Shown here: positions 22,342 through 64,000 of the stretch, piece by piece
Numbering within the stretch: the stretch's first letter is position 1
How the letters are laid out: each line of letters opens with the position of its first letter
Notes under the pieces: generated by a model
What the model was told of the DNA's origin: nothing
Seen by the model: only the letters and a program-made list of their open reading frames with translations
The model's database searches: none
Made by a program: the position numbers and the translations under genes
DNA from: Candidatus Latescibacterota bacterium
GTDB lineage: Bacteria > Latescibacterota > UBA2968
Length of the DNA: 64,000 bases
Direction: 5' to 3'
Assembly: GCA_965207885.1 (NCBI GenBank)
Contig: OZ242311.1
Location: forward strand, 608,001-672,000

Positions 22342-22770
22342 TTATCTTCCCTTTTTTAGAAGCGGTGAGAAATAAAAAATCACTTGACCAATGATTACGT
22401 CCCTTGTTGTGTATAAAAACTGTAAATATCTACAAAGATCAGAAAATTGGAAAAATCTACTGTTCCGTCATTAAGGGGGTTATACCCTTAATAGGAAATA
22501 CGCCCTTAGCTGCTTTTTTAAGATGAAGGAAGGACCCGCCCGACATAAAAAGAGACTTTATAGTATAGCGGTCGTATTTTGTGCGTTTTATCTTGGCTCT
22601 CCTTTTGGTCTGAACAACTCCATTTTAATGGCTTCCGGTAGTGTCTCAGTTTGAAAATTTGCGGTTTTCTGTTGACAGGGGTACGGTGCGTACTTTATTA
22701 TTCAACTTAACCCGCAGATTTCGTTCGTTCACAAGAGAAATACATTCAGGATTCAGGAGGGCAACCGACT

Positions 22771-22986
22771 ATGCCAAAGGGACCAAACGGAGAAAAGCGC
22801 CCTGGCGATGTCGTATCTTGTGCTGTAACAGTAGCACGTATTGCAACCGGTGAAATAGAAGATACGAAATACAAACAGCCAGGCAAACGAAAAGGAGGGG
22901 TCGCAGGTGGGCGTGCCCGTGCAAAAGCACTCTCGCCAAAGCGACGCAAAGAAATAGCGAAAAAAGCTGCCGCCGCAAGGTGGTAG
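22771..22986 (+). CDS. Small basic IS-associated protein
   Basis: MPKGPNGEKRPGD...GGRARAKALSPKRRKEIAKKAAAARW; SD; followed by a terminator at ~23004-23033. Confidence 0.85.
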   Translation: MPKGPNGEKRPGDVVSCAVTVARIATGEIEDTKYKQPGKRKGGVAGGRARAKALSPKRRKEIAKKAAAARW

Positions 22987-23091
22987 CTATCAGAGCAAGG
23001 AATAAGCCGAGGTCTATACGATCTCGGCTTTTTTGTTTTCAAAAACCACTCTATCCTTGACAATGGCTTTTTGCAGTGGTACATTTCTTAT

Positions 23092-23250
23092 GCTTCAGAT
23101 TAGTCACACTCAGTAGAGGCCCCGCTTGGTCGGGTAGCCTGCTGAATAGAATAGCCAAATTGTGGAGCGGATTAGCTACCCGTCCCCGGTGAATAGGTAG
23201 GGCCCTCCTCGCATCTCTCTGCGTGAGTGTGACTACTACCCGGCATCCTT
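23092..23250 (+). ncRNA. Putative structured ncRNA, copy A
   Basis: Promoter TTGACA(23057)-17-TACATT; stems tagtcacactca/tgagtgtgacta and cgggtagc/gctacccg; homologous to 58340-59420. Confidence 0.65.
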
Positions 23251-23280
23251 GCGCAATCTTTTCCACACACATTCATACAC

Positions 23281-23385
23281 AAAAAAGAGCCGGAAGACTC
23301 TGGCGGAGCCTCCCGGCAAAGGCAGACACGCGAACCACCCGTTGAAAGTTTATCGCTGCATCCACCTGATTCGTAAATGAGTGGA
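23281..23385 (-). ncRNA. Putative ~100-nt sRNA convergent on ncRNA A
   Basis: Minus-strand TTGACA (~23418) with TACTTT -10; GC hairpin then U6 ending at 23281. Confidence 0.4.
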
Positions 23386-23465
23386 TTTCAAAGTAAGTAA
23401 AAACCTGCTTTGTGTCAATTCTGTTACAGGTGGATGTGGCGACTCACCACACAGAGGAGGTTTAA

Positions 23466-24098
23466 ATGTATAGGTTCATTCTTGCTGTTTTGTCGGTACT
23501 TGTGTACTCTGCTGGCTCGCCAATGCTCGCTACTGAGCGGCCTTATTTACGGACTGATAGCGGCCAAGCCCGTCAGTTGCGCTATTCGGAGATCTATGCA
23601 ACGGCCTGGTACGGAACAGAGGGCACCATTAACCTTCATATAATAATGTCATGGACTCCTAGCAATTCCATGACCTTCGTGAAATGGTTAGTAGTCAACG
23701 ATACGGCTCGGGATCTGTATTCTGTGACCATTGGAGACAGGGAGTACGAGTGTTCTAATGGAAATGTGATAACCGTCAAGGGGAATTGGTGGACTGATCC
23801 CTTGGAGGGCAGAAGGGTAGATGACACCGTGGTCATTGGAGGCAGGGAGTACGAATTGCCGCGGGGGTGGATGCGGCGTGTTGGTGGGACCAACCCCGAC
23901 ATCATACTCCACAAGAAGTCTCCGCGCGGCCAGAAGGAGTGTCCGCGCATCACAAGCATCCGCCTGAAGGGAGACCCTAAATCTCTTGTTAAATACCTCA
24001 TCAACAAAGGTGACAAAGATGTGCATGGCTGGGGAGAGGGCGGGCGAGTTGAGGTTTACCGGAAGGTATCCCGTCGCTGGAAATTGGAGATTAAATAG
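23466..24098 (+). CDS. Secreted hypothetical passenger protein
   Basis: SD GAGGAGG; signal peptide MYRFILAVLSVLVYSAGSPMLA. Confidence 0.8.
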   Translation: MYRFILAVLSVLVYSAGSPMLATERPYLRTDSGQARQLRYSEIYATAWYGTEGTINLHIIMSWTPSNSMTFVKWLVVNDTARDLYSVTIGDREYECSNGNVITVKGNWWTDPLEGRRVDDTVVIGGREYELPRGWMRRVGGTNPDIILHKKSPRGQKECPRITSIRLKGDPKSLVKYLINKGDKDVHGWGEGGRVEVYRKVSRRWKLEIK

Positions 24099-24116
24099 GC
24101 CACATAGCTTTAGTCG

Positions 24117-24302
24117 CTATCGCGGGATCTGATAATCCTCAATGACCGTGATTTCCTCCAAGGTGACGCCTGGTGCTGGTCTGATGGTTTTTACCAATAT
24201 CTGACGCTTCTTCTGCTGTTCGGCCCGATTCTGCCTTTCAGGGCAGATTCTGGTGCATAGCACATAATAGCCAAGATACGGGCATTGCTGACACTTTACC
24301 AT
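24117..24302 (-). CDS. Cys4 micro-protein, copy A (61 aa)
   Basis: CxxCPYLGYYVLCTRxC; SD AGAGGAG; homologue at 60683-60862. Confidence 0.75.
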   Translation of the reverse strand: MVKCQQCPYLGYYVLCTRICPERQNRAEQQKKRQILVKTIRPAPGVTLEEITVIEDYQIPR

Positions 24303-24362
24303 GACAGAGGTCTCCTCTAACTAAAGACTTGACCTCAGTACACAAATTTAGTATAATCTAAG

Positions 24363-24412
24363 TGTCTGGTGCCAAGGCATTCTTTTGGGGCGTGCTCATA
24401 ACACGCCCTTTT
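24363..24412 (+). ncRNA. Putative antisense sRNA to the Cys4 mRNA leader (A)
   Basis: TTGACC(24329)-17-TATAAT(24352), then hairpin gggcgtg/cacgccc and TTTT. Confidence 0.55.
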
Positions 24413-24553
24413 CCTTGCCCACCTCATTTTCGGCAGGCTCGTTGCGCTCTGCAACTATTCAATATTAACCGTTTTTCCCCACCCTGTCAACCATTCCCAC
24501 TTAGTTTGACATAAATGCTTGACAAACAGCACCTTAATCGCTAAATTTAAGGT

Positions 24554-25393
24554 ATGAATAAGTTAAGCAAAAACAAGCGGATACAGATACTTGCGATGTT
24601 GTGTGAGGGCATGTCGATGCGGTCGGTAAGCCGTGTTGTCGGGTGTTCTATCAACTCCGTATTGAAGTTGTTGGTAGATGCAGGACAGGTGTGTGCGTTT
24701 TACCATGATGAGCATGTGCGCGGTATAGAAGCAGCCCATATCCAGTGTGATGAGATATGGGCTTTTTGTTATTGTAAGCAGAAAACGGTAGAAAACGGGA
24801 ATGTGGATCAATACGGTGCGGGTGATGTGTGGACGTGGACGGCATTAGAGCGAGACACAAAGTTGATCATTGCCTATGAGGTCGGAGATCGGTCTGCTGT
24901 GACCGCAATGGAGTTTATATCGAATCTCCGTGCGAGATTGGTGACCCGGGTACAATTGACGACGGATGGCCTGAGGGCGTATCTCGAAGCGGTCGAGGGC
25001 GCGTTTGGTGATGATATAGACTTTGCCCAATTGGTGAAGATTTACGATACTGAGACGAACCAGTTGAAACGTGTGGTGATTGGAAACCCTGTTGAGAGCG
25101 ATATTTCAACATCCCACGTTGAGCGTCAGAATCTCAATATGCGAATGGGGATGCGCCGGTTTACGCGACTGACGAATGCGTTTTCAAAGAAGTTGGAAAA
25201 CCACATTCACATGCTGAGTCTCTACTTTCTGTATTACAATTTCGTGCGGATGCATTTGACGTTGGAGACAACGCCAGCAGTCGCGGCAGGGTTGGCAGAC
25301 GAAGCCTACACAATGGGCTGGATCGTTGACCTGGTGGATGCTCACGCACCCAAACCCAATCGACCAAAAACGTACCGCAAAATTTCAAACTGA
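24554..25393 (+). CDS. IS1-family DDE transposase
   Basis: N-term HTH (EGMSMRSVSR), QCDEIW, TTDG, VERQN, RRFTRLTNAFSKK; stop codon inside the IR. Confidence 0.9.
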   Translation: MNKLSKNKRIQILAMLCEGMSMRSVSRVVGCSINSVLKLLVDAGQVCAFYHDEHVRGIEAAHIQCDEIWAFCYCKQKTVENGNVDQYGAGDVWTWTALERDTKLIIAYEVGDRSAVTAMEFISNLRARLVTRVQLTTDGLRAYLEAVEGAFGDDIDFAQLVKIYDTETNQLKRVVIGNPVESDISTSHVERQNLNMRMGMRRFTRLTNAFSKKLENHIHMLSLYFLYYNFVRMHLTLETTPAVAAGLADEAYTMGWIVDLVDAHAPKPNRPKTYRKISN

Positions 25394-25402
25394 GACACTA
25401 CC

Positions 25403-25640
25403 TGGCTTCCCCAAAAGTAGGCTGTTTCATTACTCTTGTAATTTTGTCCCGTATGCGAAAACTCAGGACATAAGGAGGGAACAGGAAATGTGTGTAATAG
25501 AATTCATACGTGGCGCAGAACTTCTCTCCCAACTGCATAACTTCGGCCCCGAGGTAGTTCGCTAATCCGTATTCCTTCGCTCTAACGGCGGCATTGTATC
25601 GCTTGCATACTTCGAGGATTTTTTTCTTTGGATTTTTCAT
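25403..25640 (-). pseudogene. Phage-like small gene split by the IS1 element (3' end at ~22588-22636)
   Basis: Removing the IS and one TSD gives ...QPTFGEAIKMELFRPKGEPR*. Confidence 0.65.
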
Positions 25641-56193: not shown

Positions 56194-56280
56194 AATGCGT
56201 CCTTTTTGTGTGCAAAGAGTATATTCAGTTCTATGTGTTTTGTCAACGCGATATCCTCATTTTTTCTCTGGTGATAAATC

Positions 56281-57201
56281 ATGTCTATAGACCAGATACA
56301 AATTGCCTCGGAACTTCAGCGCGCGTTGCAGAGGTTTCTCGATTCTGTGACGCTGGAGCGCGGGTTGTCGGATAATACGGCGCGTGCTTATGAGCGCGAT
56401 TTGAGCCGGTATTTGACGCTGTTGACCGATTTGGGGATCCGCGCGCCGGATGAGATTTCTCAGACAGAGGTGTCCGCGCTGTTGAATTTGCTTTCGGAGA
56501 TGGGGCTGGAGGCGTCGAGTGTGGCGCGCAATTTGACGGCGGTGCGGATGTTTCACCGGTTTTTGTTGGGGGAGGGTCTCGCGCGCCGGGATCCGACGGA
56601 GCATTTGAAGCCGCCTAAGTTGGGGCGAAAGCTGCCTTCGGTGCTGAATATTTACGAGGTTGAGCGGTTGATGCTGGCACCGGATGTGGAGACGCCCCTG
56701 GGGTTGCGCGATCGCGCGCTTATAGAGATGCTTTATGGGGCGGGGTTGCGGGTGTCGGAGTTGATCGGCTTGTCGCAGGTGGATTTGCTGTTTGATGTGG
56801 AGGTGGTTCGGGTGCTGGGCAAGGGCGGGCGCGAGCGGGTGGTGCCGATTGGGTCAGAGGGTATTGAGTGGGTGACGGCGTATTTGCATGCGGTGCGTCC
56901 TGGTCTGGTTAAGCCCCATACCGGGGTTGAGGTGTTTTTGAATTTTCGCGGTGGTCCGTTGTCGCGGATGGGCGTGTGGAAGGTGCTGAGGCAATACGTG
57001 GTGCTGGCGGGGTTGGAGAAGAAGGTGAGTCCACATACGTTGCGGCATTCTTTTGCGACGCATTTGCTGGAGGGTGGCGCAGATTTGCGGGCGGTGCAAG
57101 AGATGCTGGGGCATGCGGATATTTCAACGACGCAGATTTATACCCATGTCGATCGGGAGTATTTGAAGGAGGTGCACCGGACGTTTCATCCGAGGGCGTG
57201 A
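56281..57201 (+). CDS. xerD: Tyrosine recombinase XerD
   Basis: ERGLSDNT, RDRA..GLRVSE, SPHTLRHSFATH, LGHADISTTQIY, HPRA. Confidence 0.95.
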   Translation: MSIDQIQIASELQRALQRFLDSVTLERGLSDNTARAYERDLSRYLTLLTDLGIRAPDEISQTEVSALLNLLSEMGLEASSVARNLTAVRMFHRFLLGEGLARRDPTEHLKPPKLGRKLPSVLNIYEVERLMLAPDVETPLGLRDRALIEMLYGAGLRVSELIGLSQVDLLFDVEVVRVLGKGGRERVVPIGSEGIEWVTAYLHAVRPGLVKPHTGVEVFLNFRGGPLSRMGVWKVLRQYVVLAGLEKKVSPHTLRHSFATHLLEGGADLRAVQEMLGHADISTTQIYTHVDREYLKEVHRTFHPRA

Positions 57202-57265
57202 GGGGTGTGAAGAGGCCTCACACAAAGACATAAAGACACAAAGGTACGGAACGATAAAGGCACTC

Positions 57266-57303
57266 GTCATCGCGGCATGTTTAAAGCCGCGATCCAGAAA
57301 GTT
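57266..57303 (+). repeat. REP-like repeat copy
   Basis: gtcatcgcggcatg..gccgcgatccaga. Confidence 0.8.
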
Positions 57304-57421
57304 AGGTGCTTTCATGGCCTCTGCAAGAGGCATGGTTTTATATTGCGGGAGAAATATTTTACCTTATTTTTTCTTTATTCGCAGTTGTCATAGAAAAAAC
57401 GATTTTACAAGGGAGGTTGTT

Positions 57422-57787
57422 ATGTTTCGAGATATTTGTCGCGTGTTCGCGTTGGCACTCGTGGCTGGTGTGATATGGGGTAATGCACAGATCACGAGTT
57501 CTTCCGCGATGGCCGCCGATGATGAGGATGCGCTCACCAAAGCTTATGTAATGAAGGCCATTGAGCGTTACCAGCGCGATGGCCGGGAAGCCACACTCGC
57601 ATACTACAGTAGCCGAGAAAGTATCGAAGGCGAGCGGCTCATGCTTATCATTGACCCGCAGCAAAGCATCATACTGGCAAGTGGTTTATCCACGCGCGTC
57701 GGTGCGCCCGCGCCCGCCCTCGGTCCAGTCACTCCGGAAGGCATCTGGATGGATCATCAAGGTATTCATCCCAGAACCCGACAGTTA
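57422..57787 (+). pseudogene. 5' part of secreted multi-Cache-domain gene, split by the IS1595 element
   Basis: SD and signal peptide; joins in frame to 62736 (RTRQL|GPMRNFLIRHDDLVF). Confidence 0.9.
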
Positions 57788-57816
57788 GGGAATTATATAC
57801 AATAGTGCCGAAGTGA

Positions 57817-58281
57817 TTAAAAACGCTTGAGTGCTTCAGCAAAGTAGTCAATTTTCCGGTTGGGCACATCTTCGCCATTGTATTGCATCTCTATATACAC
57901 GCGCGGCGTTGGGTGCCTGTTTCGGTCATATTCACTGCGTAGTTCTATTGCAGTCTGTCCATTGTCCGTGATCCAGGTCGGGTTCAGGTATGCACAGTCT
58001 TTAACCGGATCCCCGTTTTTCTCTATAAGCACATTTTGGACATTCTCATATAACTTGTCACATTTCTGAAACAAGCAATAATCCAAAGATATGAGCTTAT
58101 ATATGTCTTCTTCTCGGCTAAAACGGTAGCTCAAAACACCCTCACACCTAAGGACCCACCCTTTATATGACAGTGTGAGTTGGTCTTCCTTGTGCAACTC
58201 CCACCCCGAACCTTCTTCGGATGCTTTTACTTCTTCCCGAGAAGCACCCCAGTACGTATTCAATACTTTTATTCTGGACAT
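57817..58281 (-). CDS. Hypothetical passenger protein
   Basis: SD GGAGG; WGASREEV motif; stop abuts the IR. Confidence 0.7.
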   Translation of the reverse strand: MSRIKVLNTYWGASREEVKASEEGSGWELHKEDQLTLSYKGWVLRCEGVLSYRFSREEDIYKLISLDYCLFQKCDKLYENVQNVLIEKNGDPVKDCAYLNPTWITDNGQTAIELRSEYDRNRHPTPRVYIEMQYNGEDVPNRKIDYFAEALKRF

Positions 58282-58347
58282 ATTATCCCTCCAAAAAGTT
58301 TTTCTTTGCTCTACGGCAAAGTGTAACTATATTGCTCTTGTTCATCA

Positions 58348-59218
58348 TTAGGTAGTGTCTGAAAAGTAAGCTTTGAAGAGTTGTCTGATACAGGCCAGCT
58401 TGACCATAGTGAGAAAATGAGTCGCCTTTTTTTCAAATCGGGTCACAATCCGTCGGCAGTGTTTAAGCCAACCAAAGAGACGCTCCACGATATTGCGTTT
58501 GGCATATAATCTTTTATCACACTTAGGCCGTGGTCCTCTCTTACGCCGTTTTCTGCCTTTGGGAATCGCCTTGTTTGGGATAGCAGCCTTGATACCCCGT
58601 TTGCGTAGATAGACTCTGATGCGTGAGACATCATAAGATTTATCAGCTACCAGATACTTGGGTCGGTTTCTTGGACGCCCTCGTTTGGTGGGTATGCATA
58701 CCTTTGACAGTAGCCTTTCAGCCTGTGTGGATTCTGACTGGTTACCAGGGAGAAGATCCACTGCTAAAGGATGCCCGACTGCATCGCAAAGAAGATGGAT
58801 TTTCGTGGTCAAACCGCCACGAGAGCGTCCTAAAGCGTGATCTGGGGGCTCTTCTTCACCCTTTTTGCCCTTTTTTTTTCGCTCCTGCCGCGGCTTGTGT
58901 GGCTCGAATATGGGTTGCATCCATCATCCAGGTCGCATAATCTAAAAGACCATCTTCACCCAATTTGAGATGTAGCTTTTCTACAATGCGATCAAAGGTG
59001 CCATCCTGTTTCCATTTGCAGAATCGGTCAAAGGCTGTCTGCCAAGGACCATATCGTTCTGGCAGGTCGCGCCAAGCTGCACCTGAACACAATATCCAGA
59101 AGATCCCGTTGAATAATGTACGATCATCCCGACGGGGACGACCCATCTTCTTCGGCGGTGGGAACAGGTCTTGGATCAGATGCCAAGCCTCGTCGCGCAG
59201 TTCATATCTCCGTTGCAT
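58348..59218 (-). CDS. IS5 transposase in two overlapping ORFs (58856-59218 and 58348-58920), probable programmed frameshift
   Basis: WRDLPERYG, DAT; GRSRGG.TTK, ADKSY, RNIVERLF; A9 run in the overlap. Confidence 0.9.
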
Positions 59219-59287
59219 ATCATACTCCTTGGTTTAGGGCGTATGCTGCAACTAAAATACATACTTTACGACTTTTCAGACACTACC
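58351..59287 (-). mobile_element. IS5-family (IS427-like) element, 937 bp
   Basis: 17-bp IRs ggtagtgtctgaaaagt; TA duplication. Confidence 0.93.
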
Positions 59288-59507
59288 TAGGCAAACACCC
59301 GGAGGTCGGGTGGCCTACTAAATACAAGAGCCTTACAAAGGTCGGACTTGCTACCCGACCGGTGAATAGGTAGGACTTTCCGTAGATGTGTTTGCGTAAT
59401 GGTGAACTCCGCCCGGCACCTTTTTAAGTGCCGAGAGGGGGCACAGCATCATGCTTGCACATCCCTTCTGATCGAAGATAAAATCGCCTTACGCGAGATT
59501 ATGTGCC

Positions 59508-59556
59508 AAAGCCCTGGCGGATAAACAGTTATCGTTTATTGTCCGCCGGGGCTTTT
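59508..59556 (+). terminator. Strong intrinsic terminator/attenuator
   Basis: aaagccctggcgga...tccgccggggcttttt. Confidence 0.75.
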
Positions 59557-59770
59557 TGTTTTTGCTGTGCCTCACGCACCGTGCTGTTCATCATCATTGG
59601 CATTGCGCTACCAAATGCATGAGCACTTCGGAGACAGGTTGCTAATCTGTCCAGGCAGTGGGGCACAGCTTGAACGGAAAGGAGGTGAATTAGGTTAATT
59701 CAGCCTCATTGTAGTATGCCACAAAAACAACCAATTCGCAAGTTTTTACAACAAGGAAAGGAGAAGAGTA

Positions 59771-60049
59771 ATGGCAGAAATAAAAACGGTTCAATGTCCA
59801 CATTGTAAAAAAAATGTGCGTTTTGAGAAAAGCGCATCTGGCAAATGGGTTGGAACTATTGCTGGTGGTGGCATAGGGTGGGGGATTGGGTCGGGTTTGG
59901 GCATAGCCGGGGGAATACTCGGCGCACCTATCGCTATACCCGCTGCGCTTGTGGCATTGGGTATAGGCGCACTATTGGGCAATAGAGCAGGGGCAATAGC
60001 AGATAATTCTGTAAAATGTCCAAACTGCAAGGAGCACATGTCAATATGA
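59771..60049 (+). CDS. Glycine-zipper membrane peptide with CxxC at both ends
   Basis: CPHC...GxxxG repeats...CPNC; SD AGGAG. Confidence 0.8.
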   Translation: MAEIKTVQCPHCKKNVRFEKSASGKWVGTIAGGGIGWGIGSGLGIAGGILGAPIAIPAALVALGIGALLGNRAGAIADNSVKCPNCKEHMSI

Positions 60050-60060
60050 AAGGGGCAAGT

Positions 60061-60696
60061 ATGAAGTTTCGCAACTTACTCACGGTGGCCTTTCTGATGC
60101 TGACGGTCAACATCCAAGCGAGTCCACTTGGAGAGAACCCGTTTGGCTTCAAGATGGGTATAACTCAAGACGATGTGCGCAACTTGGAAGGCGTTGTTGT
60201 CGATAGTGCCTGGGTATCGGGAAAGACAAAAGTTTTGACACTCTCCAAAGTGCCAGTGCCAGATGCAAGGTTTGTGACCTTTAACCTGTATTTCACAGAG
60301 AAGCACGGCCTTTATACACTTCAGGCCATGAGCAATTTTCTCAGGGTTGGGACAGGCGGGCAGGACATTATGCCGAAATATGTTGCGCTTCGTGAAGAAT
60401 TGGCAAAAATCTATGATAAGTACACCAAATATGGATTCACCAAATCGGCTTATGTGGATGGCATCGCCACTTGGGAGACTGGTATTGAGTGGGCATTGCA
60501 AGTCAGAAAGGGAAGCGGTCGGCACGATGGGCACGCTTTCGTTTCAAACTGGCTATTAGGCTTGGGTGGTCAAAAACAAAGCGAGCAACTCAGCATTGTT
60601 GGGCTATCAATCAGGGTGTGGGATCCCGCAAACCTTGTGCTGACATTCGGCTTTCGCAATATGCATGATGCCGGCGACTATGTTAGTAATCCTTGA
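60061..60696 (+). CDS. Secreted hypothetical passenger protein
   Basis: Signal peptide MKFRNLLTVAFLMLTVNIQA; PFGFKMG. Confidence 0.75.
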   Translation: MKFRNLLTVAFLMLTVNIQASPLGENPFGFKMGITQDDVRNLEGVVVDSAWVSGKTKVLTLSKVPVPDARFVTFNLYFTEKHGLYTLQAMSNFLRVGTGGQDIMPKYVALREELAKIYDKYTKYGFTKSAYVDGIATWETGIEWALQVRKGSGRHDGHAFVSNWLLGLGGQKQSEQLSIVGLSIRVWDPANLVLTFGFRNMHDAGDYVSNP

Positions 60697-60862
60697 TGAC
60701 CACGGTGGTCTTCCAAGTGATGCGTGGCCTGGAGTTTCTTGCCAATATCCGGTTGAGATCTTTCCTGTTCTGTTGTTCGACCCGGCTCTGCCTTTCATGA
60801 CAGGTTCTGGTGCATAGCACATAATAGCCAAGATACGGGCAGTTCTGGCATTTGAATTCCAT
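60683..60862 (-). CDS. Cys4 micro-protein, copy B (59 aa, absent from ORF track)
   Basis: MEFKCQNCPYLGYYVLCTRTCHERQSRVEQQ...VIKDY; SD AAGGAG. Confidence 0.75.
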   Translation of the reverse strand: MEFKCQNCPYLGYYVLCTRTCHERQSRVEQQNRKDLNRILARNSRPRITWKTTVVIKDY

Positions 60863-60920
60863 GTCAAGCTCCTTACAGATAATCGCTTGACAGATTTCCC
60901 CAATTCATGTAAGTTTGGGT

Positions 60921-60987
60921 ATCATCTGTCGGCGATGGTATATATGGGGCCCGCCCTTATCCCAATGGGGGCGGGCTGCTGCATTTT
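60921..60987 (+). ncRNA. Putative antisense sRNA to the Cys4 mRNA leader (B)
   Basis: TTGACA(60887)-17-TAAGTT, then hairpin gcccgcccttat/atgggggcgggc. Confidence 0.5.
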
Positions 60988-61028
60988 GCAGCAGTATGTG
61001 TACATTTTACCGTATTCGCTTATTGCTG

Positions 61029-61970
61029 TCAAGCCGTGAGGTCGCAATACCTCAGCCGTTTCCCCTCAAATCCTCGCACGATCATCTTCATCTGCTCAAT
61101 GGTGTCCTTCATCCGCATGTTCTGCCGTGCCACAAACTCTGCGATATACCTCCACAGGTGCTTCTTGCTCATCTTGTGATACACACCCATGATGGCACGT
61201 TTGATGCCCGACCAGAAAGATTCGATGCCGTTTGTGTGAGCGTCATCTCGGACATATTCTCCCCGCGAGTGAATCACCTTTTCGTGTTCGTATCCTTCCA
61301 GGTCATTATAGACGTGTGACCCGTCTGTATAGACGGTTGCACCCTTCTTGGTGCGATCTTCTATAAACGCGTGTAGGGTGTCCTCATCGGGATCGTCAAT
61401 CACAAGGGCCTGAACCTGTTTGGTCTCTCTATTCTTCACGCCAGCCACAGGGATTTTGCCCGATGTGCCTCTGCCAGCACGCAGTTTCTTCTTCGCGTGT
61501 TTGTTGCCTTCCTTGCCGCCGATATAGGTCTCATCAACTTCTACTGTGCCCTCAAACAGGAAGAGTTGCTCTTCTGCCATCGCCTCACGGATACGATGCA
61601 GAAGATGCCATGCTGTTTTCTGTGTGACACTCAAATCACGATGGATCTTCATGGATGAAATCCCTTTGAGTGTGGTGGTAAAAAGATAGACAGCAAATGC
61701 CCATATCTGATAGCCAAGGTTGGAACACGCCATAATGGTGCCCGTCTTTACAGAGAACCGTTTGTCACAGTCCCTGCATCTGTGTGGCATGGTCTTGTGC
61801 GCCGTCCTTTCATTCACATTGACACTCCCACAACACGGGCAGGCCATCCCATCAGGCCAGCGTGTGTGGATAAACCACTTCTCTGCGGTCGCGTTGTCGG
61901 GGAACATCTTGAACAACTGGATGAGGGATATGCCCTCTCGCTGATGCATGCCAGGCGCATTGCGTGCCAT
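61029..61970 (-). CDS. IS1595-family DDE transposase
   Basis: Zn ribbon CPCC..C..C, QKTAW HTH, VEVDET, YTDG, NGIESFW. Confidence 0.95.
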   Translation of the reverse strand: MARNAPGMHQREGISLIQLFKMFPDNATAEKWFIHTRWPDGMACPCCGSVNVNERTAHKTMPHRCRDCDKRFSVKTGTIMACSNLGYQIWAFAVYLFTTTLKGISSMKIHRDLSVTQKTAWHLLHRIREAMAEEQLFLFEGTVEVDETYIGGKEGNKHAKKKLRAGRGTSGKIPVAGVKNRETKQVQALVIDDPDEDTLHAFIEDRTKKGATVYTDGSHVYNDLEGYEHEKVIHSRGEYVRDDAHTNGIESFWSGIKRAIMGVYHKMSKKHLWRYIAEFVARQNMRMKDTIEQMKMIVRGFEGKRLRYCDLTA

Positions 61971-62068
61971 AGGTACACCTCACTTTTCTCTTGCAATTTG
62001 TGTGGTGACCCGTTATTTTTTATTCAAGCTAACCTAATCTCATTGTTTAGCTTTTTGGAGGGCAGTTG

Positions 62069-62106
62069 GGCGAGCCCTATGTTCCAGCATAGGGCTCGCC
62101 CTTTTT
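62069..62106 (+). terminator. Intrinsic terminator hairpin
   Basis: gggcgagccctatg/catagggctcgccc followed by T5. Confidence 0.7.
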
Positions 62107-62320
62107 ATATCTGCCCAAAAAATAATGGGTTACGATTTGAAATAAGATAACATTCCGTACGCTAAAATGCAAGTATTTTTTACTGCTCAAATGTGCAGTA
62201 AAAAAGAAAAGTGCTTGATTCTGAGAACCCGTTGGGTTAGATTTGGGCATCCATTATTAGCGCCATTTACGGTTGTATCAGCAACCGTAAATGGCTAACC
62301 CCCACATCCAAGGAGGAAAC

Positions 62321-62626
62321 ATGGGGATCTTTAATCCGGGGCGGCCATCCACCCAGGATCCGCCGGGCAGCATGGGACTGTATCGCTCAGTAGGACCCGA
62401 GGGCAATCTTAAGTATATCGGGTCGGCGAGTGACCTGAGTAGCCGTATCAATGCTCAGATCAGGTCAGGTGCTAAGGTGTCGCCTGGTGACACAATAGCT
62501 TGGCAGGCGGCCAAGCTAGGCACAACTATTCAACAAGTGAGGGCACATGAGGCCGCAAAGATAGCCCAACACAACCCACCCCTGAACCTCAGAGCGGGTG
62601 GAGGAGGACGCCTGCCAAATACGTGA
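62321..62626 (+). CDS. Stand-alone minimal GIY-YIG nuclease
   Basis: GLY..KYIGSA..L..R..HE..I....PPLN; SD AGGAGG; terminator at ~62644-62677. Confidence 0.8.
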   Translation: MGIFNPGRPSTQDPPGSMGLYRSVGPEGNLKYIGSASDLSSRINAQIRSGAKVSPGDTIAWQAAKLGTTIQQVRAHEAAKIAQHNPPLNLRAGGGGRLPNT

Positions 62627-62735
62627 TGATAATGTGTAACGAGAAAAGGGAGAACACGATCTGTGTTCTCCCTTTTTGTTTGCCAACATCTTTCTTGGTC
62701 ACTTCGGCACTATTGTATATAATTCCCGACAGTTA

Positions 62736-63977
62736 GGCCCCATGCGCAACTTCCTCATTCGGCACGATGATCTCGTTTTCATGGCCGGGCATTTCACGTT
62801 GCAAGAAAATCTGGCCGACGTCACCCGCAATTACATCGCCAAAGCGATCGCGCACTACGACCGAGAGGGCCTGGAAGCGACCATCGCGTATTACAACAGC
62901 CGGGAAAGCGTGGATGGGCATTTTTATTTGTTCCTCATCGGGGCCGATGATCTCTACCTGGCACATCCCATTTTCCCGCACCTGATCGGCACGGACATCA
63001 AGGACGTGGTGGGTTCGGACGGTTACGAACTGGGGAAGGAGATCGCCAAGGCGACCGCGGAAGGCCATTGGGTGGAATACCTGTGGCCGAACCCGGTAAC
63101 GCTGCAGGAAGAACATAAGGCGGCCTGGGTGGTGCGCCACGACGGGCTGATCTTCGCCTCGGGCTACTACACCTCGGACACCGAGGCCGGGTCGCCGCCC
63201 TGGCAGGGTGCCGATCCGAGGGAGTACACCGTGGCGTACGTGCAACGGGCCATTGACCGCTACAAGAGCGATGGCCTGGAGGCGATGAAGGCCTACTACA
63301 ACAGCGTGGCCTCCATTGAGGGCGAGTGGTATTTGTTCGCCACCGGCGCGGACGACATCTATCACGTCCACCCGCTGATTTCCAAACTGATCGGCACGGA
63401 CCTCAAGGATGTGGTGGGTTCCGATGGCTACGAACTGGGCAAGGCGCTGGTCAAGGCGGGGGACGGCGTGGGCGTTTGGGTGGAATACCTGTGGCCGCAT
63501 CCGGTGACGCTGGCGGAGGTTCCCAAGGTGGGCTATGCCATTCGGCACGATGGGATGATTTTCGCTTCGGGCTATTACCCTGCCCCGGAGAGTCCCGAAG
63601 CGGGCACCAAGGCATACGTGCAGGCTGCCATAGACAAGTACAAACAGGATGGCCTGGAAGCTACAGTCGCCTACTACAGCAGCCGGGAGAGCATTGAAGG
63701 CCAATCGTCCCTGTTCCTGATTGACGAGAATGACCGCATCGCTGTCTTCCTTGTTGCGCCCGGAGCGGTGGGTCTCAATATCGAGGCCATTAAGGTACCC
63801 AGCACCGGATTTGAACTTGGCAAAGAAATAGTGCGTGCGACCGAGGCCGGGCACTGGATTCACTACCAGCGGCCCCACGTGAGAACCGGCGTAATCCTGG
63901 ATGCACATGCATGGGTGATTCGCTACGATGGCCTGATTTTCGGGTCGAGCTACTTTGGCGAACCGGCGGGCGATTGA
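62736..63977 (+). pseudogene. 3' part of secreted multi-Cache-domain gene
   Basis: Three further repeats Y...AI..Y..DGLEA..AYY.S..S..G...HDG.IF.SGYY. Confidence 0.9.
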
Positions 63978-64000
63978 GAAGCCTTTGTCTCGCATTACTA

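Follow-up and report, generated by a model that had tools for sequence, protein, structure and literature searches.

How does a gene of about 60 codons come to lie beside the transposase genes of two unrelated transposons in one bacterial genome, and what does its product do there? The question is raised by a 64,000-nucleotide stretch of contig OZ242311.1 (positions 608,001 to 672,000) of a Candidatus Latescibacterota bacterium, hereafter referred to as the window, which holds two related micro-protein genes, designated peptide A and peptide B. Each gene stands behind a long leader that contains a promoter-like site on the opposite strand and a hairpin. An original prediction likened this arrangement to hok/sok, a type I toxin-antitoxin (TA) locus, and proposed a new type I TA pair or an antisense-controlled metal-binding regulator. 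We found that both genes are cargo of transposons, which goes beyond that prediction: each lies, adjoining a transposase gene, within terminal inverted repeats (TIRs), and the two elements belong to different insertion sequence (IS) families. The transposon-borne micro-protein cassette is real and new. Antisense control of some kind at the cassette appears, from the geometry of promoters and hairpins, a little more probable than its absence; the full TA reading, in which the protein would also be toxic, is possible but on balance unlikely.

Peptide A is cargo of element A (Table 1), which is bounded by a 29-nt inverted repeat (97% complementary) and, in the window, flanked on both sides by the 8-bp target duplication TGGCTTCC. 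The genome holds four copies of this element at approximately 100% identity, and perfect 8-bp target duplications flank three of the four. The remaining copy (copy 1, G000:C1:304525-307290) has unlike flanks, which would be consistent with a flanking deletion or with recombination between copies. An empty site is present among reads of the source sample, where a contig of run X1 connects position 22628 to position 25403 with eight letters that match both sides, and the read depth in the same sample is 231 over the element against 83 over its flanks (approximately 2.8-fold). The transposase matches Pfam DDE_Tnp_IS1 (PF03400, 37.2 bits versus a cutoff of 24.1), and its matches on plasmids carry the annotation IS1 family transposase. 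With its TIRs, short target duplication and signs of movement, element A belongs to the IS1 family. Its four genes encode a 71-aa basic protein, a 210-aa open reading frame (ORF), peptide A and the transposase.

Peptide B is cargo of element B, which has TIRs of approximately 29 nt and the 8-bp duplication GACAGTTA at 57780-57787 and 62728-62735. The congeners G010, G007 and G008 have the empty site, with window positions 56261-57789 joined straight to 62725-63978, and TIR-like ends related to those of element B are also present in congeners. The TIRs, the duplication and the empty site in relatives assign the element to the IS1595 family. Its transposase, a single copy in the genome, matches Pfam DDE_Tnp_IS1595 (PF12762, 131.8 bits) and, at 23.3 bits and thus just below the cutoff of 25.4, Zn_ribbon_IS1595 (PF12760); it is an IS1595-type DDE transposase with an N-terminal zinc ribbon. 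The other genes of the element encode a 154-aa ORF, a zinc-ribbon membrane-type 92-aa ORF, a 226-aa ORF and peptide B. Given the TIRs, target duplications and two transposase families, both elements are IS-with-cargo transposons, a type known as transporter IS (tIS), of unrelated families.

The two elements share the peptide gene only: BLAST aligned 86 nt at 87% identity and nothing more. The cassette adjoins the transposase gene in both but is divergent from it in A and in tandem with it in B. The 210-aa and 226-aa ORFs that converge on the peptide genes were considered as a common partner of the peptide and rejected, because they are mutually unrelated (E 3.3). Peptides A and B are 54% identical (32/59, E 6e-21), and no frame besides that of the peptide is open in both loci. 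As the original prediction had noted, the genes have a 37-nt core in common that is identical even at synonymous sites (alignment columns 277-313; 12 of 12 codons the same). Since 4 of the 17 other N-terminal codons with identical residues differ synonymously, the absence of such differences in the core has a probability of approximately 0.04 and is weakly beyond chance. This identity would also result from gene conversion, within the one genome, between B and A, which has four copies. No long-range mRNA partner of the core common to A and B was found in full-length mRNA folds, and this explanation was rejected.

To what family do the peptides belong? Two exhaustive protein searches, covering billions of sequences, returned 13 usable members and one odd fusion (P0005). 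Peptide A and P0002 consist of a Cys4 part, a basic stretch and a C-terminal module "a", which ends in VIEDYQIPR in peptide A, while peptide B and P0008 carry module "b" in its place, ending in VIKDY in peptide B. Both modules occur in tandem in P0003 and P0004, and in P0007 the Cys4 part is combined with another tail. Cysteines are lacking in P0006 and P0009-P0013, whose start region runs straight into the last part of module b, with module a coming next; among themselves, these six Cys-less members are 74-88% identical, without frame breaks. Cys4 metal binding, which figured in the original prediction, is therefore dropped as a defining feature, since 6 of the 13 members are without the Cys4 part; judging from the members as a whole, the hallmark is the C-terminal "..P.ITW.VTTV.EDYQ.P." module. 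All 13 are basic (isoelectric point 7.7-9.8). By these predicted properties the product is a soluble basic micro-protein of exchangeable parts, in which a Cys4 knuckle may or may not precede a basic stretch and one or two C-terminal modules.

Besides A and B, these 13 members include 11 metagenomic relatives, but in 167 other genomes of the phylum, searched with two profiles, no member was found. None was found either in 72,556 plasmids, in 50,697 phage records, in IMG/VR or in JGI metagenome contigs, and the genomes of 60 relatives gave one weak match (G035; E 0.0088, 18.6 bits). The peptides have no match in Pfam, NCBIfam, PHROGs or PADLOC; in Pfam, no family was found for A and B at E<=1, and the 13 members together gave four weak matches at E<=10, none of them Hok-type. 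Profiles of the PDB gave no match in one search and one chance match in another, and the best ESM atlas score of the peptide (0.89) was under the useful mark. Two AlphaFold2 runs gave poor models (mean predicted local distance difference test scores of 51.4 and 53.6), and a two-copy complex prediction, at a score of 0.01 against a mark of 0.42, gave no answer either way. As seen in these collections, the family is new, orphan and extremely rare.

The reality of the gene itself needs to be considered here, because the ORF might have no protein function, being either a decaying remnant or a conserved nucleic-acid element with an incidental frame. The codon comparison of A with B, with 24 identical codons, 9 synonymous and 22 replacement changes, fits such a view, as do the deletions, the P0005 fusion and the module losses in the family and the low AlphaFold confidence. 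However, A and B carry different, paralogous modules, so that the codon comparison is not like-for-like in the C-terminal half. In addition, the frame is preserved in 13 sequences, as are the start region and the ..EDY(Q.P.) end, the frames of the mutually similar Cys-less members are intact, and the 37-nt core is without a shared partner in the mRNA folds. Rfam gave three weak matches below their gathering scores, none of which overlaps the cassette at E<=1. We regard a non-functional frame as quite unlikely. Judging from the 13 ORFs that keep the frame and the C-terminal end, and from the strong Shine-Dalgarno sequence and own consensus promoter of both A and B, the peptide gene is real.

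The Cys4 stretch also bears on another possible function, that of a precursor of a peptide synthesized by the ribosome and modified post-translationally (RiPP), in which the Thr/Glu/Asp-rich C-terminal modules (..VTTV.EDYQ..) would be graspetide-like cores or a radical-SAM enzyme would act on the cysteines. Some members have tandem module repeats, and graspetide precursors with repeated cores are known (PMC8939145). Moreover, two sulfatase-maturase-like radical-SAM proteins encoded on genome contigs (L014, L015) have a C-terminal SPASM motif similar to the Cys4 stretch, which shares with them an identical eight-residue run (the first Cys pair plus Pro-Tyr-Leu) followed by Cys-x3-Cys-Pro. Unlike in these two proteins, the spacing of the Cys pairs is 8 or 10 instead of 5, there is no radical-SAM core, and six family members are without the motif; the peptides do not have the Cx2Cx5Cx3C arrangement inside a radical-SAM enzyme that defines SPASM. 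L014 and L015 were accordingly rejected as relatives of the family. An origin from a host sulfatase-maturase gene was also rejected, since the motif is absent from the genome, which has no protein bearing a SPASM-type Cys motif (no relevant matches). RiPP precursors are recognized by a cognate modifying enzyme beside the precursor gene, and neither element has one among all of its ORFs, although no search for ATP-grasp ligases was made in the remainder of the genome. The copies are, furthermore, dispersed within transposons. A RiPP precursor is very improbable.

The case for antisense control comes from the arrangement around the two genes. Promoters were called as matches to the -35 and -10 consensus in the sequence, and the transcripts discussed below are predicted. 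The features named in the original prediction are in place: at locus A the mRNA promoter, the leader, the opposing promoter and the hairpin, and at locus B the mRNA promoter, the opposing -35 and the hairpin, with an opposing -10 (TAAGTT) that is weak. A non-hydrophobic small protein gene with a long leader, inside which lie an opposing promoter and a hairpin, is thus seen with similar geometry in two loci, A and B, whose leaders cannot be aligned with each other. The distance from the ATG to the opposing -35 is 27 nt in A and 25 nt in B, and the spacer measures 17 bp in both. The hairpin starts 58 nt (A) and 61 nt (B) after the start of this -35, and in both loci the GC-rich hairpin begins 23-26 nt past the predicted start of the RNA. 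None of 200 shuffled sequences was as stable as the leader fold of A (z -3.9) or that of B (z -5.0). The predicted opposing RNA of A, which would be complementary to the peptide A leader, folds at -18 kcal/mol (z -2.1), and that of B, with a predicted start near 60922, at -30.3 kcal/mol (z -1.6).

Sites of this quality are infrequent in the genome (6.23 Mb, both strands), which has 160 sites of at least 11/12 matches compared with 75 in the shuffled sequence, or approximately one per 39 kb, and 1285 of at least 10/12 compared with 917. At this rate, an 11/12 site within a 150-nt leader is unexpected (~0.002), and the three sites of at least 10/12 in the 251-bp intergenic region of A are far above the expected ~0.05. 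The peptide and transposase promoters of element A stand back-to-back, with their -35 hexamers 29 bp apart.

We considered the opposing promoter of A as a promoter of the transposase and rejected it. In L041 and L042, the closest relatives of the IS1 transposase, the block directly 5' of the transposase start is kept, including a TTGACA that matches that at 24519, and nothing is conserved with element A beyond this transposase-proximal block. The -35 block is kept in transposase relatives at 57-62% tblastn identity (L041, L042, L044, L046). With a conserved promoter of its own, the transposase of A does not need the opposing one. The relatives keep the proximal promoter only, and all 10 related IS1-family loci are without the peptide cassette; it is thus to the cassette, and not to the transposase, that the opposing promoter and hairpin belong. 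The -10 of the transposase promoter ends 6 nt 5' of the ATG and no usable Shine-Dalgarno sequence is present, which suggests that the transposase mRNA may be leaderless. The idea that the plus strand of the leader hides a hydrophobic ORF was also rejected: both loci have a 50-codon frame, but the two are unrelated by eye, that of A has neither an ATG nor a Shine-Dalgarno sequence, and that of B starts within the promoter hexamer.

The same layout could arise around a plain cargo gene without a dedicated antisense RNA, if the hairpins terminate transcripts of the convergent 210-aa and 226-aa genes that cross the peptide gene and the opposing hexamers are inactive or incidental. The leader hairpin is indeed the first plus-strand terminator-like structure after the convergent ORF in both loci, and the opposing -10 of B matches the consensus at 3 of 6 positions. 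Promoter-like hexamers are, moreover, over-represented across both elements, with 8 sites in 22600-25450 (3.3 +/- 1.9 in shuffles) and 10 in 59300-62300 (3.7 +/- 1.7 in shuffles). These points have to be set against the 11/12 site in the leader of A, which the genome rate makes unexpected, and against the exact TTGACA in B, whose offset and spacer match those of A. The convergent ORFs are also unrelated, so that the shared design of their 3' ends would itself be a coincidence. We think this explanation doubtful.

The cassette is a self-contained unit of approximately 350-375 bp, in which a promoter and a structured 135-150-nt leader with a strong ribosome-binding site (RBS) precede an ORF of 59-61 codons, and it rides as cargo beside the transposase gene in unrelated IS1- and IS1595-family transposons. 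Under the explanation that we favor, a short RNA (~50 nt in A and ~65 nt in B) would arise on the opposite strand from the promoter within the leader, pair with leader sequence 60-110 nt upstream of the ATG and limit synthesis of the protein. The pair would act as a selfish, type-I-TA-like stabilizer of the transposon, with a non-membrane, probably nucleic-acid-directed toxin. This reading is favored because, on mobile DNA, small ORFs controlled by a cis-antisense RNA are mostly TA-like, because TA pairs occur inside transposition modules and because a non-membrane type I toxin exists. In Tn3-family transposons, type II TA pairs sit within the transposition module (PMC7157771), and the type I locus ralR/ralA encodes a non-membrane toxin, the DNase RalR, together with RalA (PMC4041452).

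Several findings weigh against this favored explanation. The first concerns the protein: all 13 members are hydrophilic (grand average of hydropathy -0.49 to -1.34), with a 15-residue hydropathy maximum of at most 1.07, and are thus not Hok/Gef-type hydrophobic membrane toxins. To our knowledge, the known type I toxins are nearly all hydrophobic. The domain make-up of the family also varies widely, down to the loss of the Cys4 part. As for regulation, the opposing -10 in B fits TAnnnT only, and the promoter scan did not list the site; in B the mRNA promoter (11/12) outmatches the opposing one (9/12), whereas a TA pair needs the opposite; hairpin B has no adjacent T-run; and both hairpins are placed as terminators of the convergent ORFs would be. 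The mRNAs do not adopt the RBS-hiding fold of the hok/sok type, as the Shine-Dalgarno sequence has an unpaired probability of 0.53 in A (80th percentile) and 0.28-0.36 in B (47th-59th percentile) and is no more buried than in the control, 300 genes sampled from 858. Finally, four identical copies of element A would supply the RNA in trans, so that the loss of one copy would go unpunished. It seems improbable that the cassette is a new type I TA family with a soluble basic modular toxin that was captured independently as "addiction" cargo by unrelated IS families.

The protein might instead be an accessory or regulatory factor under antisense control and not a toxin, namely a small nucleic-acid-binding protein, metal-binding in some members, that modulates transposition or the expression of the element. 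The antisense RNA would then act in trans between copies and bring about multicopy inhibition, as do RNA-OUT of IS10, FinP on traJ and CopA on repA. The architecture argues for this as much as for the favored explanation. In each element the cassette is the immediate neighbor of the transposase gene, with back-to-back promoters in A, and element A is multicopy; every member is basic; the RBS is accessible, and the strong mRNA promoter in B fits a harmless product. However, the transposases are of unrelated families and the orientation of the cassette differs, which makes a specific partnership with the transposase or its ends unlikely. The cassette is also lacking in the 10 related IS1-family loci and in an IS1595 relative, and family and PDB profile searches gave no match to a DNA- or RNA-binding family. 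We hold an accessory protein to be a minority possibility.

How the cassette compares with known systems depends on which of its parts is considered. The loci hok/sok and tisB/istR-1 are type I TA systems in which an antisense RNA acts against the leader of the toxin. The cassette is like type I TA loci in its ORF of about 60 codons, its long folded leader, the predicted unit of opposing promoter and hairpin, its location on mobile DNA and its narrow, patchy distribution. It is unlike them in that its protein is hydrophilic and basic, has no membrane segment and has no sequence relation to toxin families. From hok/sok it differs further in that no overlapping mok-like frame is seen, the RBS is not sequestered and the opposing promoter is weaker in B. 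Of the hok/sok likeness originally proposed, the leader, the opposing promoter and the hairpin held, while a Hok family match, a hydrophobic stretch and a buried RBS were not found; the cassette is not a member of the hok/sok family, from which both the toxin type and the mRNA fold set it apart. Short antisense RNAs also control the IS10 transposase (RNA-OUT), traJ (FinP) and repA (CopA), so that an antisense RNA over a leader does not alone define a type I TA locus, contrary to what had been supposed. Like these RNAs, the predicted RNA of the cassette is a short hairpin RNA from an opposing promoter, complementary to the 5' part of the mRNA, and could act in trans between copies. Unlike theirs, its target is a micro-protein, neither a transposase nor a known regulator, and the transposase of A has its own promoter. 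By analogy, the cassette would probably work like a type I TA locus or a control unit of the RNA-OUT/FinP type.

As for the elements, tIS are IS-like elements with passenger genes, for which the IS1595 and IS66 families are named (TnCentral preprint 10.1101/2021.05.26.445724). Elements A and B resemble them in having one transposase gene each, TIRs, an 8-bp target duplication and several cargo genes; element A is unlike them in that its transposase is of the IS1 family. ISfinder contains long IS1-family members, the ISMhu11 group, on which our literature search found no paper. Element A is an active IS1-family element with three cargo genes and a modest addition to the tIS. The TA pairs of Tn3-family transposons, as far as the source cited above describes them, are likewise small selfish cassettes beside transposition genes, but they are type II protein-protein pairs, unlike the single protein gene and putative RNA found here in IS1 and IS1595 elements.

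Were the favored explanation true, small RNA-controlled selfish modules would be traded between IS of different families, and a new fold would be added to the few non-membrane type I toxins or antisense-controlled micro-proteins. Taken as addiction cargo, the cassette would be the first RNA-antitoxin stabilizer of simple transposons. Regardless of function, the window provides a micro-protein family that is new and orphan, an active element of the IS1 family bearing three cargo genes and a 4.9-kb IS1595-family cargo element with exact borders. Because the family is extremely rare, its wider impact would be limited unless the mechanism is new.

Table 1. Features of elements A and B, in window positions; promoters are given as -35 hexamer, spacer length and -10 hexamer, with the number of consensus matches
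Feature	Position	Strand	Details
Element A	22637-25402	+	IS1-family transposon with cargo, 2766 bp
TIRs of element A	22637-22665 / 25374-25402		
71-aa basic cargo ORF	22771-22986	+	Shine-Dalgarno sequence present
210-aa cargo ORF	23466-24098	+	Convergent with peptide A, 18 nt stop to stop
Peptide A gene	24117-24302	-	61 aa; GAGGAG at 24312-24317, 9 nt before the ATG
Opposing promoter A	24329-24357	+	TTGACC-17-TATAAT, 11/12
Predicted opposing RNA unit A	24329-24413	+	RNA from ~24364 to the hairpin and T-tail
Hairpin A	24387-24409	+	Terminator-like, then TTTTCCTT
Peptide A promoter	24490-24462	-	TTGACA-17-TAATAT, 10/12; leader ~150 nt (region 24303-24490)
IS1-family transposase promoter	24519-24547	+	TTGACA-17-TAAATT, directly 5' of the ATG
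IS1-family transposase gene	24554-25393	+	279 aa
Element B	57788-62727	+	IS1595-family transposon with cargo, 4940 bp
TIRs of element B	about 57788-57816 / 62699-62727		
IS5-family insertion in element B	58347-59290		944 bp; Pfam; 22 other near-identical copies in the genome
226-aa cargo ORF	60016-60696	+	Convergent with peptide B, overlapping its 3' end by 14 nt
Peptide B gene	60683-60862	-	59 aa; Cys4 part, basic stretch and module b; AAGGAG at 60869-60874, 6 nt before the ATG
Opposing promoter B	60887-60892 (-35), 60910-60915 (-10)	+	TTGACA-17-TAAGTT, read from the sequence
Predicted opposing RNA unit B	60887-60990	+	
Hairpin B	60948-60977	+	
Peptide B promoter	61032-61004	-	TTGACA-17-TAAAAT, 11/12; overlaps the transposase stop codon; leader ~135 nt (60863-61032)
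IS1595-family transposase gene	61029-61970	-	313 aa; upstream of peptide B, same direction

The remaining cargo of element A has features of its own. The 71-aa ORF has a promoter-like site at 22672 (11/12) and a strong terminator-like hairpin at 23004-23030. It has 3152 relatives at E<=1e-5, a few of which are named "RNA-binding protein" or "histone H1" at their source, and scores 0.94 in the ESM atlas to clusters automatically named RNA-binding protein. That a possible RNA-binding cargo protein adjoins a putative antisense pair may be more than coincidence. The 210-aa ORF has no family match in Pfam, NCBIfam, PHROGs or PADLOC. It contains a 26-nt direct repeat in 23724-23854, with copies 105 nt apart and 88% identical, which gives a repeated peptide motif, and its N-terminus is signal-peptide-like by eye.

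As for element B, an IS1595 relative of its transposase gene in a congener (L034, in G009) is 81% identical and without a peptide cassette. Compared with element B (61027-62727), this gene is inverted relative to the right-end segment and is followed by a different small ORF; element B may have been rearranged. A 163-aa ORF (57314-57805) crosses the left border at 57788, so that the insertion replaced its last codons in comparison with the empty site in G010. Adjoining the right border, a 420-aa ORF (62733-63995) has no family match, occurs as two tandem copies in G007 and G008, and shows internal similarity as well as distant paralogous similarity within its own genome. Just past an integrase-like gene, a sequence of approximately 45-50 nt at 57252-57304 has many copies, 80-97% identical, in most genomes of the genus and looks like a dispersed repeat of the repetitive extragenic palindromic type. 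Lastly, the plus strand of the window (1-64000) has a strongly positive GC skew (up to 0.37 in 2-kb windows) and most long genes at 26-53 kb lie on the minus strand, so that the coding strand is C-rich in this region, which is unusual.

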